The notes beneath the pieces are model-generated. The model was not told where the DNA came from, did no database searches, and worked only from the letters and a program-made list of their open reading frames with translations. The position numbers were made by a program, and so were the translations under genes. From Bacteroidia bacterium (GTDB lineage: Bacteria > Bacteroidota > Bacteroidia > J057 > JADKCL01), in assembly GCA_041565275.1 (NCBI GenBank), contig JBFGVE010000004.1:1-59343 (forward strand): a stretch of DNA of 59,343 nucleotides, read 5' to 3'. This document shows, one piece after another, positions 15,695-58,846 of this stretch (the first letter of the stretch is position 1; each line of letters opens with the position of its first letter).

Positions 15695-16369
15695 TCAGGA
15701 AGGTTCAACTACTTCCATAATAGCTTTGTTCAAATAGGTATTCAAAGGAACCATTGCCTGATAGACATCCAATGCCATGGTGATAAAGTCCTCACTCGTC
15801 GTCTCGTCATCGGATAAATTCCGGGTCATCAGGAAACTTTTGTGACGGATAAGATCAATAGCTGGATGGTCCTTGCTGTAGCCCTTTGGCGATGTTTTTA
15901 CCTTGTCACCTTCCATTTCTCCAAACTGACGGACGAATTCTTCACTGTTAATGATTTGCCGCAAAGATTGGGCATCATAGTCAATCCCTTCGCGGATAGC
16001 CTTCAGTATACCGGAATCAGGACGGTAGATGCCACCAGCAAGAAAGGAGCCACCTGGTTGAATATGCAAGTAAAATCCGGCAAAAGGAGATTTTCGTCCT
16101 CCCCTGGCCATCCAAGCCCCCATATTGGTTTTGTAAGGAGCTTTGTTGGCGGAGAATCTGGCATCCCTGAAAATGCGAAATATACTCTTCTTAGCTTCTA
16201 AATTCCTAAAATCAGGTTCATAAGGAACCAAGCCAGCGATCAATTCACCTGCCACTGACTCAAGGTTCTTCTTGGCAGCTTCGTAAGTTTTTTTGTTCTT
16301 TAAGAACCATTCACGGTTGTTGTTGTCAGCAAGGTCAAGTAAAAATTGAAGGGTAGAAGGTTGAATCAT
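15695..16369 (-). CDS. DUF2461 (TIGR02453) family protein
   Basis: NNNREWF, IFRIFRDARFSANKAPYK and PKGYSKDHP motifs. Confidence 0.92.
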   Translation of the reverse strand: MIQPSTLQFLLDLADNNNREWFLKNKKTYEAAKKNLESVAGELIAGLVPYEPDFRNLEAKKSIFRIFRDARFSANKAPYKTNMGAWMARGGRKSPFAGFYLHIQPGGSFLAGGIYRPDSGILKAIREGIDYDAQSLRQIINSEEFVRQFGEMEGDKVKTSPKGYSKDHPAIDLIRHKSFLMTRNLSDDETTSEDFITMALDVYQAMVPLNTYLNKAIMEVVEPS

Positions 16370-25321: not shown

Positions 25322-26209
25322 ATGAATATTTTTGTCGCGAAGCTTGACCCTATTACCAGAGACAGTGACCTTATCGAACTATTTAGTCAATATGGCGATG
25401 TAGTTTCTTCAAAAGTTATAATGGACCGGGAAACCGGAAATTCTAAGTGTTACGGTTTCATCGAAATGAAAGATGAAGATGAGGGCTATAATGCAATCAA
25501 TGAACTAAACCGTACAGACTTCCAGGGCAGTGAGATTCACGTCAAAAAAGCAAGTCCACGTGAAGAATACAACAGCTCTAAGCCAAGTGGTGACCGTGTT
25601 GGTTATGGCGGTGGCGGTCGTAGTGGTGGTTATGGTGGCGGACGTAGAGGTGGGTATAATGGCGGTAGTAACAACCGTAGTGGTGGTGGCGATTATAACC
25701 GAGGAGGTAGCGGTGGTTACAACCGAGGAGGTAGCGGCGATTATAACCGAGGAGGTAGCGGTGGTTACAACCGGGGAGGTAGTGGTGGTTACAACCGGGG
25801 AGGTAGCAGTGGTTACAACCGAGGAGGTAGCGGTGGTTACAACCGAGGAGGTAGTAGTGGATACAACCGGGGAGGTAGTAGTGGATACAACCGAGGAGGT
25901 AGTAGTGGATACAACCGAGGTGGAGGTGACCGTAACTACAATGACCCGCAAGACACAGAGTTGCGTCCAGGTGAGATCGGATACGGCAGCATCAGCGGTC
26001 AGTATCGCCGCCATTCTGATGAAAATAACCGAAGCAGATACGAAAATGACCGTCACAGACCTAATAGGGACCCTTCAGGTCATCATCGTTCATTTTCTAA
26101 GGAAAGAACTAGGAAAATTGGAAACTTCGTAGACAGAAATGAGCTGGTTGATAGTTTCCGGATTTCTAGTAAAGTGTCCGAAAATTATAACGAAGGTGAT
26201 GATAAATAG
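25322..26209 (+). CDS. RRM RNA-binding protein with long Gly/Arg/Tyr-rich tail
   Basis: RNP2 (NIFV) and RNP1 (KCYGFIEM), DRETGNSK, then YNRGG repeats. TATATTTG boxes lie at 25187 and 25280. Confidence 0.92.
   Translation: MNIFVAKLDPITRDSDLIELFSQYGDVVSSKVIMDRETGNSKCYGFIEMKDEDEGYNAINELNRTDFQGSEIHVKKASPREEYNSSKPSGDRVGYGGGGRSGGYGGGRRGGYNGGSNNRSGGGDYNRGGSGGYNRGGSGDYNRGGSGGYNRGGSGGYNRGGSSGYNRGGSGGYNRGGSSGYNRGGSSGYNRGGSSGYNRGGGDRNYNDPQDTELRPGEIGYGSISGQYRRHSDENNRSRYENDRHRPNRDPSGHHRSFSKERTRKIGNFVDRNELVDSFRISSKVSENYNEGDDK
25688..25927 (+). repeat. Coding tandem repeat of 10 x 24 nt ([GS][GD]YNRGG[SG])
   Basis: Ten consecutive 8-aa units counted in the DNA, varying at synonymous positions. Confidence 0.95.
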
Positions 26210-56033: not shown

Positions 56034-56609
56034 TTATTCAGCAGATCCGGCTTCGCCTTCAACGATCAGCCCGTCTGCTATAAAGGTTATACGCTCTTCT
56101 GGCTCTGTGATGGCACTGATCTCTTCTTCGGTCGCTTCGTTGTCAGCAGCAAGATGCCTGAGTTCTTCTAAAGAAACAATCTCGCGGTAAGCCCATCCTT
56201 CGACAACAGCAGACTTTCCACTGGAGTTCTTAGGAGCAAAGAATGCATAATCTTTGAACTTGATCATCATTTCAGCTTCATCATTTAGAGGCATGGTTAT
56301 CCAGCAGCCTTTGGCCTGACAACAGGAAGAAATAGTTCCACGTACTTTGGTCCTTACACTGTCCATGTCGGTGAGTTGGGCAATAACTTCGTCCCCGTCT
56401 ATTGCACCCTCGGCTGTGATCTCAGCACCAAATTTTCCAACTGCATCGGGTTCCGGAAACGTTTCTGACTTTTCCTCTGCGTCTGTTTCGTTGATTTCCT
56501 CTGCCGGGGGAACCTCTTCTGTAACGGTCGCTTCAGCAGTGGTTTTGGATGTATCGTCACATGCAAATAGGAAGCTGGCCAAAAAGAATAAAAGGATAAT
56601 TGTTTTCAT
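56034..56609 (-). CDS. DUF4920 family lipoprotein
   Basis: Lipobox LFAC, CQAKGCW, FKDYAFFAP and LRHLAAD motifs. A TAAATTTG box lies on the minus strand at 56635-56642. Confidence 0.9.
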   Translation of the reverse strand: MKTIILLFFLASFLFACDDTSKTTAEATVTEEVPPAEEINETDAEEKSETFPEPDAVGKFGAEITAEGAIDGDEVIAQLTDMDSVRTKVRGTISSCCQAKGCWITMPLNDEAEMMIKFKDYAFFAPKNSSGKSAVVEGWAYREIVSLEELRHLAADNEATEEEISAITEPEERITFIADGLIVEGEAGSAE

Positions 56610-56694
56610 AGAGCCTAATTCTCGTTACGGGGTGCAAATTTAAATAAATAATATTTCACTTCCCTGCGTCTGGAAAGTGCTGCTGCGAGACAAA

Positions 56695-57180
56695 GGAGTC
56701 GGAAGACGGTCGGAGGATAAATTAAGTGAGTTTGAGGGACAGCCCAGTTGTGGTCGGAGTACAACCTGGTTGGAGGTCGGAGTATAGCTCTGTGGTAGTT
56801 TCACCACAGCTCAGTTATGGTCGGAGTACAACCTGGTTGTGTCCAGAGTATAGCTCTGTGGTAGTTCCACCACAGCCCGATTATGGTTGGAGTACAACCC
56901 AGTTGTGTCCAGAGTATAGCTCTGTGGTAGTTTCACCACAGCCCGATTATGGTTGGAGTACAACCTGGTTGTGTCCAGAGTATAGCTCTGCGGTAGTTCC
57001 ACCACAGCTCAGTACGGTTGGCGCTCATCTCCGTTGTCGTCAGAAAATAACCTGTTTGGCACTCGGAGTACAATCCCCTGGTGTCCGTACTATAAATTAG
57101 TTGAGTTCTTAGTATAAAACAGCAATGTCCACAGTACTACCCAAGGGGCCACCGGAACATAACCTGTTATCGCCCGAGAA
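56695..57180. repeat. Non-coding array of about 22 phased, degenerate 22-nt units; the core (56739-57010) is a 66-nt higher-order repeat in about 4 copies
   Basis: Units begin A(C/T)A at 56717, 56739, 56761, 56784, 56806, 56828, 56850, 56872, 56894, 56916, 56938, 56960, 56982, 57004, 57047, 57070, 57092, 57114 and 57159, with weaker units at 56695, 57026 and 57136. Many end in (G)AGT. Confidence 0.9.
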
Positions 57181-57414
57181 TCGATTATTTGACGATGGTT
57201 GAAGATCTCCAACCCAATACCGGGCAGTTTCAATATATTTGATTCTGGATTTTGAAGGAATCAAACCATTAGCTACCAGCAACTTAGTATAATTTCATAC
57301 CCAATTCTATTCTGGAATCCGGAGAATGATGTAACGATACTCTCAACAATATTTGCGAGTTTGATAGAGTAACCCTGTTAACACTCTTTTTTCAACACGT
57401 TAACCTCTACAACC

Positions 57415-58242
57415 ATGAGCACTAATCCAGGGCGGGTCAACCGCCAGTTTTCCGACAATGAGTTGAAGGACATTGCCACAGCAATTGACCTCCTCAATCA
57501 ATCCTTCTCTTTCTCCCGTGGCCTCAGCTCCCGCGACCAACGCCGTCTGGTAAGGATCGGGACCAGCAACAGGAAGTTCGTACAGACCGTCAAACACGCG
57601 GTAGACAATGTCGCGGTACTTCCCGGGTACATCTCCATGACGGAGTTCCAGAACGAGTATGCCATCTTTTTTCAAATTGAAGCTTTGCTTGCTACCCTGA
57701 GAAGCTTTGAAGAGAAGCTGAGGCAAACGCAGTTGGTAGCGGGCAAGCACTTGATGAACGACTGCCTGGATGTGTACAAGACAATGGAATCCGCAGTGAA
57801 CAGGGGCTTTGCAGAAGTTGTCCCCTATTACGAAGAAGCCAAGAAGCGATTTGAAGGCCAGGGACGAAGATCATCCTCCCGGAAGGAAAGTGATCCTGAA
57901 GAGTTATCTCCTGTGGAGCCACCTCCCGCCGATCTGTCAGCTACCGATCCACTTCCAGTCGATTCACCTCTTGGCGAGCCACCTCCTGGCCATCCTTCTT
58001 CTGACGATGCACCCCCTGGCGACCCCAATGGTCCTCCGGTACCCGGACTGCCTGAAAGTACTACTGCCGACCGCCCGGAACCGGGTACCCCTGCTTTGGA
58101 CGGACTTAAACAGCCATTCAGAACGTTCAGCCTATCCGACCACCAATTGCATTCAGGATACGATGCCCACCACAGGGAACAGGCGCAAGACCATGGGTCA
58201 CCTGACTTGCCGCACCAAAAGACAGGGGTTAGAGGTGACTAA
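57415..58242 (+). CDS. Uncharacterised helical protein (about 150-aa core) with Pro-rich tail
   Basis: Core pattern LS..D.RRL..IG....FV......LP......EF..E....L...AG...M...L.VY...A...G....YEEAKKRF. A TATATTTG box lies at 57234-57241. Confidence 0.8.
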   Translation: MSTNPGRVNRQFSDNELKDIATAIDLLNQSFSFSRGLSSRDQRRLVRIGTSNRKFVQTVKHAVDNVAVLPGYISMTEFQNEYAIFFQIEALLATLRSFEEKLRQTQLVAGKHLMNDCLDVYKTMESAVNRGFAEVVPYYEEAKKRFEGQGRRSSSRKESDPEELSPVEPPPADLSATDPLPVDSPLGEPPPGHPSSDDAPPGDPNGPPVPGLPESTTADRPEPGTPALDGLKQPFRTFSLSDHQLHSGYDAHHREQAQDHGSPDLPHQKTGVRGD

Positions 58243-58337
58243 GACAATAGCGGTAATTAAAATTTTAGTAGACTTACAGCGCTGTTTGTCCGGTTTATTC
58301 AAATCTCAGCCCAAGTTTGACAAACCGTATCAAACTC

Positions 58338-58846
58338 GTGTACAAAAGCACATTGTTGCTACTCTTTGTTCTGGCTTCCCCCACCTTGCAAACGCTCTGG
58401 GCCCAGGCCCCTGATTTGTATTGGTACAATGCAAATGGCCAGAAACACCGCTACTGCTCAACGCACCGAACAGATCTTTGACATCTGGCGAGTCTCAACT
58501 TACCTCTGCGAATTTGACGTCATCACTAAAAATGACAGCATACAGGTCAGTTACCATGACAACTGACGGGGGTATCGTGGCCGTCGGATATGAAGATGCA
58601 AATTCGGACTGGATCACCCTCCGGAAATTCAGTCCTTCAGGTACGGTCCTGTGGAGCCGGACCTTCCAGCGTTTTCGAGATAATACAGCATTTGATGTGA
58701 TCGAGACCAATGACGGCGGCCTCGCTTTTGTGGGGAATGTATATGGTGAAACCCCAAACGGTTCTTTTGACTTCTACTTCGTAAAGACCGATTGCGAGGG
58801 AAAATTGAATTGGAATGAGCAGGTCGTCAAAATAACGCATGAATGA
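58338..58846 (+). pseudogene. Frameshifted/internally deleted secreted beta-propeller-repeat protein
   Basis: GTG at 58338 gives the signal peptide MYKSTLLLLFVLASPTLQTLWAQ and stops at 58481. A different frame (58421-58846) carries two TxDGG...G...W blades (DFYFVKTDCEGKLNW). Confidence 0.6.

Follow-up and report, generated by a model that had tools for sequence, protein, structure and literature searches.

A 22-nt phased repeat array and an uncharacterised helical protein point to an undescribed array-plus-protein module in Bacteroidota

A tandem array of 22-nt units, located close to one end of a stretch of Bacteroidia DNA and next to a gene for a helical protein, was found to have counterparts at many other loci encoding relatives of this protein, and the pairing of this protein family with arrays of 21-22-base units points to an undescribed array-plus-protein module of Bacteroidota. 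The stretch of DNA that was analysed, being 59,343 nucleotides in length, is referred to as the window throughout. The original prediction, which had been based on the window alone, held that the array and the helical protein form a pair and that homologues of the protein would be flanked by periodic arrays, and this proved correct for 34 of 72 loci, whose array units measure 21.0-22.0 nt. Its further proposal, according to which the spacing of about two helical turns and not the sequence is under selection, is strongly supported by the comparison across loci. Indirect evidence favours a DNA-level role for the array, and the best reading of the module, to which a probability of roughly 40% is given, is that of a DNA track with two-turn phasing on which a predicted dimer of the neighbouring protein would assemble.

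The array of the window lies inside an 805-nt divergent gap (56610-57414), the genes neighbouring the module in the window are of housekeeping type, and the array consists of a core and a degenerate continuation (Table 1). The 66-nt period of the core was recovered by TRF with 90% matches (score 412), each 66-mer being composed of three different 22-nt subunits, and the autocorrelation of the core amounts to 0.79 at lag 66 and to 0.50 at lag 22 (95% shuffle maximum, 0.35), so that the 22-nt period is real but nested within the 66-mer. The degenerate part retains the register and a unit start of the form A[CT]A[AG], and little else. Autocorrelation within 57011-57180 was 0.39 at lag 22 and 0.40 at lag 44, the lag-22 value being reached by none of 500 shuffles, and the register thus persists, as had been claimed, in diverged DNA outside 56739-57010. 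No 22-nt periodicity was detected in 56610-56738, where the value at lag 22 (0.196) is below the null mean (0.258); therefore, of the approximately 22 units first proposed, the 20 that were counted from 56739 to 57180 stand, while the leftmost two (56695-56738) do not. Similarly, the proposed unit junction, AGT followed by A[CT]A[AG], was retained in part, since the start is present in 18 of the 20 units and the AGT end in only 11. One 7-bp inverted repeat capable of hairpin formation (CTGTGGT-N6-ACCACAG) is present in each 66-mer of the core.

Table 1. Features of the array-plus-protein locus, with positions given for the whole window.
Feature	Position	Strand	Description	Basis
Terminator-like hairpin	56657..56679	-	Directly left of array	Consensus scan
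Array core	56739..57008	none	66-nt unit x 4.1, about 12 units of 22 nt	TRF, autocorrelation, inverted repeats, unit list
Degenerate array continuation	57009..57180	none	About 8 more units of 21-23 nt	Autocorrelation, unit list
Near-palindrome (candidate operator)	57197..57214	none	18 bp, GGTTGAAGATCTCCAACC	Repeat search, inverted-core scan
-7 box, Bacteroidota-type (likely promoter)	57234..57241	+	TATATTTG	Pattern search
Conserved helical domain	57415..57879	+	aa 1-155	ORF, alignments, AlphaFold2, phmmer, dimer prediction
Variable tail	57880..58242	+	aa 156-275, to stop codon	Alignment, charge count

No second array of this period class was found by TRF in the whole window, and a 22-mer of the array has three occurrences in the window, all of which are located within the array. 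A search of 56400-57600 against Rfam gave no match at E <= 1, and no GC-skew switch was found in the window. Folding of the whole array as RNA was modestly better than that of shuffled sequences (z = -2.8 and -2.5 for the two strands), a gain that is expected of any palindrome-containing repeat.

The gene to the right of the array starts with the ATG at 57415, which agrees with the predicted distance of about 235 nt from the array end, and specifies a protein of 275 aa. Its domain was modelled by AlphaFold2 as all-helical with a pLDDT of 94 (helices at residues 14-30, 39-44, 50-65, 75-129 and 133-146), consistent with the compact helical core that had been foreseen. By phmmer, 350 relatives of the domain were retrieved, the family size being at least 350 clusters at 50% identity, and a search of the ESM Atlas returned unnamed Bacteroidota clusters only, with no usable match when the search was limited to named entries; these relatives bear out the original assignment of the core to a widespread unannotated Bacteroidota family. 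Searches of 60 members against Pfam, NCBIfam, PHROGs and PADLOC produced only chance-level matches, each confined to a single member, and the best E-value obtained with a sequence profile against the PDB was 0.045. Foldseek recognised no DNA-binding fold in the PDB (best E-value 2.3), and VIA-align against representative PDB chains gave a best Z of 5.8 to generic helical hairpins, with the N-terminal helices barely covered; neither of these weakly matching fold searches listed a Nop or snoRNP protein. No family relative was found in the metagenome contigs that were scanned. One candidate, P0009 (1083 aa, 10 matching stretches), was dropped as an apparently spurious repeat ORF.

Prediction of a homodimer yielded a score of 0.79, the best of three controls scoring 0.00, and the runs agreed in at least 78% of contacts at a pLDDT of at least 79. 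The mark used for such predictions was reached by 20 of 30 structures of same-chain pairs and by 1 of 23 single-chain structures, a calibration which is rough as our own alignment was used. The domain is thereby confidently predicted to form an intertwined homodimer. Its 55-residue helix (75-129) would be approximately 82 A long, which by arithmetic from the model is close to 22-24 bp of B-DNA. The tail is acidic and disordered, is rich in proline, aspartate, glutamate, serine and glycine, carries a net charge of about -12 in the window protein, and is unconserved even in relatives that are 94-99% identical to that protein. Among 46 family members the net charge averages -1 for the domain (range -11 to +6) and -5 for the tail, and only five domain positions (7, 42, 47, 143 and 145) are mostly K/R. 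The domain is not basic, which is unusual for a DNA binder.

For 72 loci of the family, spread over more than 30 genomes, the association between array and gene was assessed. These were the window itself, 20 paralogs in genome G001, 25 loci of nine related genomes and, from an even sampling of the phylum in which 24 further genomes had a match, 26 loci contributed by 22 of those genomes. An array was counted when a tandem array of the 21-22-nt unit class was present within 1.5 kb of the family gene. In total 37 arrays were identified, 25 of them upstream (23 loci) and 12 downstream of the gene (12 loci), and 38 of the 72 loci, including the closest genome homologue (L001), are without an array under this rule. 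The same rule was applied to approximately 510 kb of control DNA, made up of far flanks (55.6 kb), the remaining 58 kb of the window and a 400-kb stretch of contig 1 of genome G005 that was chosen blind to gene content. No array of the 21-22-nt class was found there away from a family gene, the sole such array in the G005 stretch being located 750-1000 nt upstream of its only full-length family gene.

With the exception of one array with periods of 11, 22 and 33 nt, all arrays have units of 21.0-22.0 nt (36 of 37), namely 21.0 nt in 10 arrays, 21.2-21.4 nt in four, 21.5 nt (as 43-nt doublets) in six and 22.0 nt in 16; the 22 arrays with units of 22.0 or 21.5 nt derive from periods of 22, 43 and 44 nt. 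This distribution indicates a non-integer optimum near 21.5 nt, with units that for the most part are no multiples of 3, and it fits helical phasing rather than codons or the counting of nucleotides. The arrays have a median of 11 units (range 4.5 to at least 45), and several of the downstream arrays begin just past the stop codon. The 20 family copies of G001 are distributed over 20 contigs, and in five recent paralogs of this genome DNA similarity sets in at the array and breaks off where the domain ends; judging from these comparisons, array and gene are inherited and duplicated together. No conserved neighbour gene was identified in 21 loci, nor in 20 loci of 19 genomes (+/-6 kb).

In paralogs that are 84-90% identical a common unit core is recognisable, while in those that are 66-70% identical the units are unrelated, and at the level of sequence the unit is seen to turn over fast and to be private to each paralog, the pitch being kept. 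Related arrays are found in both orientations with respect to the gene (the window versus L035 and L031; L019 versus the second array of L020), and a 12-mer is common to the array of the window and those of L035 and L031, though the corresponding proteins are only 15-25% identical. Array similarity does not simply follow protein similarity. Sharing of 10-mers between arrays, observed for 71 pairs against a shuffle mean of 81, was not above the level of shuffles, though a few pairs share many, and neither a universal unit motif nor a universal dyad symmetry was found among the arrays.

Boxes of the type TAnnTTTG are present at both sites where they had been claimed, i.e. downstream of the array on the plus strand (Table 1) and at 56635-56642 on the minus strand, the former being likely to represent the promoter of the helical-protein gene. 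The near-palindrome pairs the unit core (GGTTGGAG-like) with the same core in inverted form; it ends 19 nt before this -7 box and hence occupies the position expected of a -33 element, where it may serve as an operator. An inverted copy of the unit core is present within 120 nt of an array end in 13 of 36 arrays, and that of the window coincides with the -33 position of the promoter. Among the 72 family loci, 19 contain a strict -7 box between -200 and -40 (about 5 being expected from the frequency in the window), and in the window and eight other upstream-array loci a strict -7 box is situated between array and ATG; array and promoter are separated by a variable distance, the shortest being about 50 nt and the longest above 1000 nt. 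A terminator-like hairpin separates stop codon and array in 7 of the 12 downstream-array loci. From the placement of the -7 boxes, these terminator-like hairpins and the occurrence of both array orientations, the array is probably outside the mRNA of the gene.

If the array is a DNA track, it would act as double-stranded DNA whose sites, all in equal phase, line up along one side of the helix, and dimers of the neighbouring protein would dock side by side to generate a higher-order nucleoprotein complex. The inverted copy of the unit core over the -33 region could make the same dimer a repressor of the gene that encodes it, in the manner of Rep dimers on iteron plasmids, and divergence of the units among paralogs would prevent cross-talk between the up to 20 modules of a genome. 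Such a complex might serve to mark or organise a site on the chromosome, or to control dosage. Several observations speak against a DNA track, namely the non-basic domain and the lack of a recognised DNA-binding fold, the 38 loci without an array, the variable distance between array and promoter, array similarity that departs from protein similarity, the 15 of 37 arrays whose unit contains no inverted repeat of at least 5 bp, and the skew towards G.T among mismatches in the units that do contain one. A more far-reaching version of this proposal, which is put forward tentatively, is that of a new class of chromosomal module in which each paralog of the helical dimer polymerises into a defined nucleoprotein body on a pad of its own, made of 5 to over 40 units with two-turn phasing, with the specificities of array and protein co-diverging, such that up to 20 bodies might coexist in a cell free of cross-talk as a bacterial counterpart of the co-evolution of satellite DNA and its binders.

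By analogy, such a module would resemble an iteron or centromere array, yet it would be chromosomal and present in many copies per genome. Iterons of R6K and pPS10 are 22 bp in length. The likeness to the iterons of R6K, pPS10, RK2 and F consists of direct repeats of approximately two helical turns beside the gene of a presumed binder (here a candidate), and helix-phased repeats of ~17-22 bp near the gene, by which iteron-Rep systems are identified, are present within 1.5 kb in 36 of the 37 arrays. A further likeness is that the promoter of the gene in the window contains the repeat core in inverted form; in iteron plasmids, Rep monomers bind to the iterons and Rep dimers bind to inverted repeats of the rep promoter to bring about auto-repression (PMC5397158). 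Differences from iteron systems are nevertheless considerable, in that the module is chromosomal with up to 20 copies per genome, and a tblastn search with the domain returned 0 matches in 72,556 plasmid records and none in a phage collection. Moreover, no match to a Rep or winged-helix family was obtained (Pfam, NCBIfam), the model being all-helical with a 55-residue helix, and the arrays are far longer, occur upstream as well as downstream of the gene and often keep a distance of several hundred nt from it.

The likeness to the plasmid partition centromeres sopC-SopB (F) and parC-ParR (R1) concerns layout only, i.e. a tandem array that directly adjoins a protein gene, which at these centromeres is the gene of the protein coating the array. 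Several module arrays likewise follow the stop codon immediately, and the 43-nt doublet units of six arrays recall sopC, described as 12 direct repeats of 43 bp, each containing a 16-bp inverted repeat that is bound by SopB (PMC3177203). In contrast to centromeres, the module is accompanied by no NTPase of the ParA, ParM or TubZ type and no other conserved neighbour (21 loci; 20 loci of 19 genomes), neither family nor fold searches pointed to ParB or a ribbon-helix-helix protein, and the modules reside off plasmids with many of them per chromosome.

An alternative that we regard as rather unlikely is an RNA-level module, in which the array is transcribed by read-through or from a promoter of its own and the repeat RNA is bound or cut unit by unit, similar to a type III TA system or a sponge RNA with multiple sites. 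In type III TA systems (ToxIN, CptIN, TenpIN) a repeat array, a terminator and a protein gene follow one another, and the protein cuts and binds RNA units in the mid-30s to 40s of nt. The module shares with them a short tandem array beside a small gene and the terminator-like site between the two in the 7 of 12 downstream-array loci mentioned above; it differs from them by its 21-22-nt units in far more copies, by arrays that may precede or follow the gene and point either way, by a protein predicted to be an all-helical dimer with no match to ToxN (Pfam, PADLOC, 60 members), and by the 15 of 37 arrays that are devoid of pairing potential. The remaining 22 arrays have an inverted repeat of at least 5 bp in their unit and would be hairpin-capable, which is in favour of a role as RNA, yet several arrays are strongly C-rich and almost without pairing potential. 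On the gene's strand the mismatches within inverted repeats are skewed towards G.T over A.C (48 versus 8 cells; 11 versus 3 arrays), a skew that is compatible with RNA pairing but which stems from few independent events and could also be produced by mutation bias. Across the stems, non-wobble mismatch cells (62) are as common as wobble-type ones (56), from which it follows that stems are poorly protected.

An RNA would also be in line with the acidic nature of the protein, which makes it no obvious DNA binder, with the G-rich-loop hairpin that closes the gene-distal array end in three genomes (L082, L083 and L030), and with the terminator-like hairpin to the left of the window array. The latter is relevant only if the array is transcribed leftwards, and its membership of the module is uncertain; terminator-like sites in the scan from which it was obtained were no more numerous than in shuffles. 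Signals for transcription of the arrays themselves argue the other way, since strict promoter boxes directed into arrays (5 of 35 from the left, 3 of 35 from the right) and terminator-like sites at the exits of arrays (3 of 35 and 4 of 35) are near chance, and the orientation of the array relative to the gene is not fixed. Base composition revealed no consistent strand skew among arrays. Rfam returned one tRNA only in 20 other family loci, and an RNA module receives no support from matches to Rfam, ToxN or another PADLOC or Pfam family. Finally, a pitch of 21, 21.5 or 22 nt is meaningful for duplex DNA and has no obvious sense in RNA. The earlier suggestion that the units might be processed to small guide-like RNAs gained nothing, considering that units are near-identical and that the window array has no match in phages and a single, chance-level match of 26 nt in plasmids (E = 0.4).

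It is also unlikely that the arrays operate as a sequence-independent DNA structure, in which in-phase bends would create curved or superhelical DNA that acts in cis (looping, silencing or insulation), or in which a host nucleoid protein binds and the neighbour is the regulated product. Such a structure explains why pitch alone is conserved amid free replacement of units and why arrays are employed both upstream and downstream of the gene and in both orientations, and it does not call for DNA binding by an acidic protein; furthermore, each 21-nt unit of the AT-rich arrays L081, L082 and L096 contains one A-tract or A4T4. The GC-rich arrays, however, are without A-tracts, and both the tie to one gene family, with no such array elsewhere in the ~510 kb of control DNA, and the joint duplication of array and gene are left unexplained.

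That the arrays are a non-functional satellite, a by-product of slippage or unequal exchange beside these genes, is improbable. Fast turnover, the lack of arrays in about half of the loci, and differences between arrays in where they lie, which way they point and how many units they have (4.5 to at least 45) are as expected of a satellite. The same applies to metagenome data for the window, as three DNA runs of one marine metagenome study cover part of the stretch in contigs that end within the array, at 56809 and 56961, and one source-metagenome contig joins 56813 to 57155, such that array length may vary. Neutral slippage, however, predicts neither a fixed pitch nor linkage to one family, whereas the 37 arrays, from more than 20 genomes, adhere to a 21.0-22.0-nt unit despite unrelated sequences, and other long arrays have quite different periods in the same genomes (8 of 9 long arrays in control DNA).

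The module has in common with guide arrays (CRISPR, TIGR and VIPR) that an array is genetically linked to an adjoining family of proteins. Intergenic arrays with a period were surveyed in a 2026 study, which reports periods of 60-79 nt for CRISPR, an 18-nt entropy period for TIGR and 5 nt for VIPR, besides a small number of arrays with periods of 10, 8 and 7 nt, and no 21-22-nt class is among those reported (bioRxiv 10.64898/2026.10.21.760802). Unlike CRISPR arrays, those of the module are head-to-tail successions of one to three near-identical units with nothing in between. No Cas domain was found in the adjacent protein and its four neighbours (last 5 kb of the window), PADLOC gave a single chance-level Cas5a match among 60 members (E = 0.0029), and the same members yielded no Nop family match in Pfam at E <= 0.01 and no Vipr-like match in Pfam or PADLOC. 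It is consequently most improbable that the array is a known guide array, as the original prediction had already stated for CRISPR and TIGR, or a repeat-protein gene, for although the array adjoins a small protein and a 124-aa ORF (56726-57100) is open through the 66-nt repeats, these readings are contradicted by the lack of spacers (adjacent units are themselves repeats, 90% alike), by the lack of Cas, Nop or other known domains, by periods of 22, 43 and 44 nt that are not multiples of 3, and by codon positions, none of the eight columns that vary among array copies 2-4 being at a third codon position of the ORF. The 124-aa ORF is not coding, in accordance with the non-coding origin initially proposed.

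In the literature searched, supplementary files being outside the reach of this search, no protein family was found to be associated with arrays of 21-22-nt units, and no such array-protein pairing was found in the searched libraries. Pairings of an array with a protein have often proved to be working machines, as exemplified by CRISPR, TIGR, iterons, centromeres and type III TA systems. In the current work, a family with no annotated domain or recognisable fold is linked across genomes to arrays that conserve only a two-turn pitch. If the array acts as RNA, the module would represent a new kind of partnership between repeat RNA and protein. If, instead, the protein assembles on the array, the module would constitute a simple natural system for the co-evolution of a DNA track and its binder, which could reveal how chromosomal sites are marked and might yield orthogonal protein-DNA pairs.

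Within the 805 nt separating the DUF4920 gene from the 275-aa ORF (see table), a single array was detected by TRF, located at 56739-57008 and having a period of 66, 4.1 copies and 90% matches. In this core the autocorrelation values for lags 66 and 22 were 0.79 and 0.50 (95% shuffle maximum 0.35), indicating that the 22-nt period, as put forward for this divergent gap in the original prediction, is real but nested, each 66-mer being composed of three different 22-mers. The claim that the register persists where the sequence has diverged also held, since 57011-57180 retains it in otherwise diverged sequence (lag 22 = 0.39, a value matched by 0/500 shuffles). The predicted extent of about 22 units from 56695 was confirmed to the right of the core but not to the left of 56739, where autocorrelation revealed no periodicity (lag 22 = 0.196, under the null mean), and 20 units are counted in total. 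Of the junction that had been described as kept (AGT/A[C/T]A[A/G]), the A[CT]A[AG] start is present in 18/20 units and the AGT end in 11/20. A 124-aa ORF running over the repeats was considered as coding and rejected, the eight variable columns of copies 2-4 being distributed 4/4/0 over first, second and third codon positions (thus 0/8 at the third), in agreement with the non-coding origin originally proposed. The array is without a second copy in the rest of the window and without an Rfam family match.

Features of the window (window coordinates) and hairpins at other family loci (relative to the ATG of the family gene)
Feature	Position	Strand	Remark
DUF4920 gene	56034-56609	minus	Pfam E = 3.6e-30
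18-bp near-palindrome	57197-57214		19 nt before the -7 box, at the expected position of the -33 element
Strict TAnnTTTG box	57234-57241	plus	Bacteroidota-type -7 promoter box
275-aa ORF	57415-58242	plus	
G-rich-loop hairpin, L082	+1205..+1244		
G-rich-loop hairpin, L083	+790..+839		
G-rich-loop hairpin, L030	+1040..+1087		

Part of the window, which makes up an entire 59,343-nt contig, is also present in sequencing runs labelled marine metagenome. In these runs many variant contigs pile up at 57175-57900 (promoter region and domain-coding part; summed depth 65-139, versus ~8 over the flanks and the array); the gene is therefore present in this sample as several related copies or strains, which does not apply to this array. 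One contig of metagenome run X1 fuses 56813 to 57155, thereby omitting 341 nt of the array, and may represent either an artefact of assembly or a variant with a shorter array. Elsewhere the window contains just one long array, a tandem repeat at 25610-25920 (24- and 48-nt periods, with up to 9.5 copies); as its period is a multiple of 3, it probably corresponds to a coding repeat rich in Gly and Arg. At 58317-58481 lies an ORF whose start resembles a signal peptide. A 141-aa ORF comes next in a different frame (58421-58846), contains repeat-like 'DGG..VG' segments and is unmatched in Pfam, and the two may be a single gene broken by a frameshift or by misassembly.

Species-representative genomes yielded a single homologue (L001, in a Bacteroidia MAG, 59% identical), which is preceded by a 970-nt gap without periodicity, and by itself this locus would have spoken decisively against a pairing of array and protein. 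A family profile search of the same 7.3-Mb genome (G001) retrieved 20 paralogs, 12 of which display upstream periodicity (lag 22, 44, 42-43 or 66-67), and TRF placed the upstream arrays at a distance of 260-1000 nt from the genes, their unit sequence varying between paralogs. Of 40 genomes related to G001, 10 contain the family, in 1 to 20 copies, as do 25/301 genomes of an even sample of the phylum. When 72 family loci were scanned for arrays with a minimum TRF score of 50, a minimum length of 85 nt and a period being a multiple of 21-22 nt, 37 were identified within 1.5 kb of the gene, spread over 34 loci, with 25 placed upstream (23 loci) and 12 downstream (12 loci); the same flanks contain 12 arrays of other periods. 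Unit length is 21.0 nt in 10 arrays, 21.2-21.4 in 4, 21.5 in 6 and 22.0 in 16, the remaining array exhibiting periods of 11, 22 and 33 nt, and the number of units has a median of 11 (range 4.5 to at least 45). Under the same rule, zero arrays were obtained from 55.6 kb of far flanks and from the remaining 58 kb of the window, and one from 400 kb of contig 1 of a further family-carrying genome (G005), chosen regardless of genes; its position is 750-1000 nt upstream of the sole full-length family gene in the 400 kb, in which eight more long arrays (periods 18-112 nt) fall outside the class. By these counts, chance accounts neither for the association nor for the conserved pitch. The proposal that array and protein form a system, and the periodic arrays expected beside homologues, are thus strongly supported by comparison, the original observation itself being confirmed in part; across loci, a pitch of 21.0-22.0 nt is kept in unrelated units.

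Long arrays with periods of 76-112 nt were observed in G005 (L032 -898..-380; L054 +1088..+1958; contig 1 65238-65824, 132298-132844 and 240576-241097). Two of the long arrays of this genome adjoin family genes, one (108-nt unit, 4.8 copies) lying between a 43-nt array and the gene and the other (97-nt unit, 9-10 copies) downstream of another family gene. At L035, a gene with a 22-nt array upstream is followed at +726..+871 by about four copies of a 36-nt unit, each containing an internal palindrome. The many heptamer tandem repeats in G005 contig 1, 1-400000 (e.g. at 16063, 30491, 30616, 152915 and 364694) recall the intergenic 7-nt direct repeats described in Beggiatoaceae (PMC4679880).

A conserved protein-coding neighbour was found neither among 21 loci nor among 20 loci of 19 genomes (+/-6 kb). 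Five recent paralogs of G001, 84-90% identical, resemble one another at the DNA level from the array through the end of the domain (aa 1-155) and no further, showing that array and gene were duplicated as one unit. In a second group (52-70% identical), the similar stretch is confined to -200 to +450, and the array sequences show no relationship, yet remain 22-, 43- or 44-periodic, so that arrays are replaced far more rapidly than the gene, with the pitch maintained. A few arrays are clearly related between different genomes. A 12-mer of the window units, read on the minus strand, recurs in the arrays of L035 and L031, where it is located on the opposite strand relative to the gene and beside proteins just 15-25% identical to that of the window; orientation is therefore not fixed, and array likeness does not simply track protein likeness. 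A second array downstream of G001 paralog L020 (+649..+971, 44-nt units) corresponds, in reverse complement, to the array type upstream of paralog L019, so that members of one array family lie on either side of family genes and in either orientation.

Five close relatives of the window ORF (66-99% identical) retain residues 1-155, the tail (aa 156-275), in which proline, aspartate, glutamate, serine and glycine are abundant, being variable. A phmmer search with the domain against 1.84 billion representatives returned 350 proteins (E <= 0.001), mostly of ~160 aa and 21-32% identical, and in the ESM Atlas the domain falls in unnamed 'hypothetical protein' clusters with Bacteroidota as the commonest source, as expected of the unannotated Bacteroidota family that had been suggested. 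Among 60 family members no consistent match to Pfam, NCBIfam, PHROGs or PADLOC was obtained, and a sequence profile search against the PDB returned nothing (best E = 0.045). The anticipated compact helical core of ~150 aa was recovered by AlphaFold2 (60 sequences) as a confident all-helical model (pLDDT 94, pTM 0.74; helices at residues 14-30, 39-44, 50-65, 75-129 and 133-146). The suggested Foldseek comparison of this model with the PDB gave no match (best E = 2.3), and as VIA-align, run all-against-representatives, peaked at generic helical hairpins (Z = 5.8), the domain is assigned to no known fold. The predicted homodimer scored 0.79 (best of 3 controls 0.00), a value reached by 20/30 proteins whose solved structure is a pair of one chain and by 1/23 proteins solved as a single chain, counts that are approximate here owing to the use of our own alignment; dimer runs displayed at least 78% contact agreement and pLDDT of at least 79, with the long helices predicted to pair antiparallel. 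The domain is not basic (mean net charge -1, range -11 to +6), and the tail carries a mean of -5 in the family and -12 in the window protein. By arithmetic from the model, the 55-residue helix (75-129) would span ~82 A, near 22-24 bp of B-DNA, and is a possible ruler for unit length.

Our preferred reading, to which we assign a probability of roughly 0.4, is that the array acts at the DNA level, offering a row of sites in identical phase along which the adjacent protein would assemble as dimers. Pairing, pitch, joint inheritance of array and gene and the predicted dimer are shown by the analysis; that the protein binds the array, and to what end, is inferred. The pitch optimum of ~21.5 nt, together with 43-nt doublets and 21- and 22-nt units, points to two helical turns rather than to codons or nucleotide counting and favours DNA. 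The same applies to the gene's own strict box, being enriched between -200 and -40 (19/72 family loci, ~5 expected from the window frequency) and situated between array and ATG in 9 loci (the window and 8 other upstream-array loci). Also counted toward DNA were a hairpin with T-run between stop codon and array in 7/12 downstream-array loci, the near-chance occurrence of promoter boxes aimed into arrays (5/35 and 3/35) and of terminator-like sites leaving them (3/35 and 4/35), the 15/37 arrays without an inverted repeat in the unit, and some arrays too C-rich to pair. It is rather unlikely that the repeat instead functions as RNA, bound or processed by the adjacent protein, a reading to which the acidic protein lends weight, as do non-Watson-Crick cells on the gene's strand of the 22 inverted-repeat arrays (48 G.T versus 8 A.C; by sign, 11 arrays versus 3); however, few independent events lie behind this skew, 62 other mismatches occur in these arrays, and a strand-specific mutation bias would give the same skew. 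A further point in its favour comes from three different genomes, in which the gene-distal array end (21-, 42- and 43-nt arrays) is closed by a G-rich-loop hairpin (GAAGTGGGAGGGGGTACTTC, about two copies); the element could form a hairpin or a G-quadruplex. Sequence-independent phased curvature, acting in cis or used by another factor, would involve the same two-turn pitch in unrelated units and is considered unlikely, and a neutral satellite, set beside an association and pitch not due to chance, very unlikely.

A 2026 survey of periodic intergenic arrays describes classes at 60-79, 18, 5, 10, 8 and 7 nt and, in the portion of its text available, no class at 21-22 nt (bioRxiv 10.64898/2026.10.21.760802); a literature search, with supplementary files outside its scope, returned no published account of a 21-22-nt array/protein pairing. 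The module differs from other known array systems and is without the ToxN nuclease of type III toxin-antitoxin systems, and a known array type or a coding repeat is extremely improbable. By analogy, its way of working may be closest to that of an iteron-Rep pair or of a centromere and the protein that binds it, sopC being described as 12 repeats of 43 bp beside sopB (PMC3177203). Unlike these, it is without a Rep, ParB or RHH domain, a partner NTPase or plasmid context and is present in many copies per chromosome, and therefore belongs to neither class. We rate it as falling outside every described kind of system, with a putative molecular function.

The near-palindrome ahead of the window gene joins the unit core to its inverted copy, and such an inverted copy is found at most 120 nt from an array end in 13/36 arrays, ~2-3 times a rough chance estimate. 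This layout corresponds to that of iteron plasmids, with direct repeats plus an inverted copy at the promoter, where Rep monomers are described as occupying the direct repeats and Rep dimers as repressing via inverted repeats in the rep promoter (PMC5397158). If the array indeed acts as DNA, dimers of the neighbouring protein would assemble along its row of identically phased sites, the promoter-proximal palindrome would allow auto-repression of the gene, and the divergence of units would keep paralogous modules mutually orthogonal.
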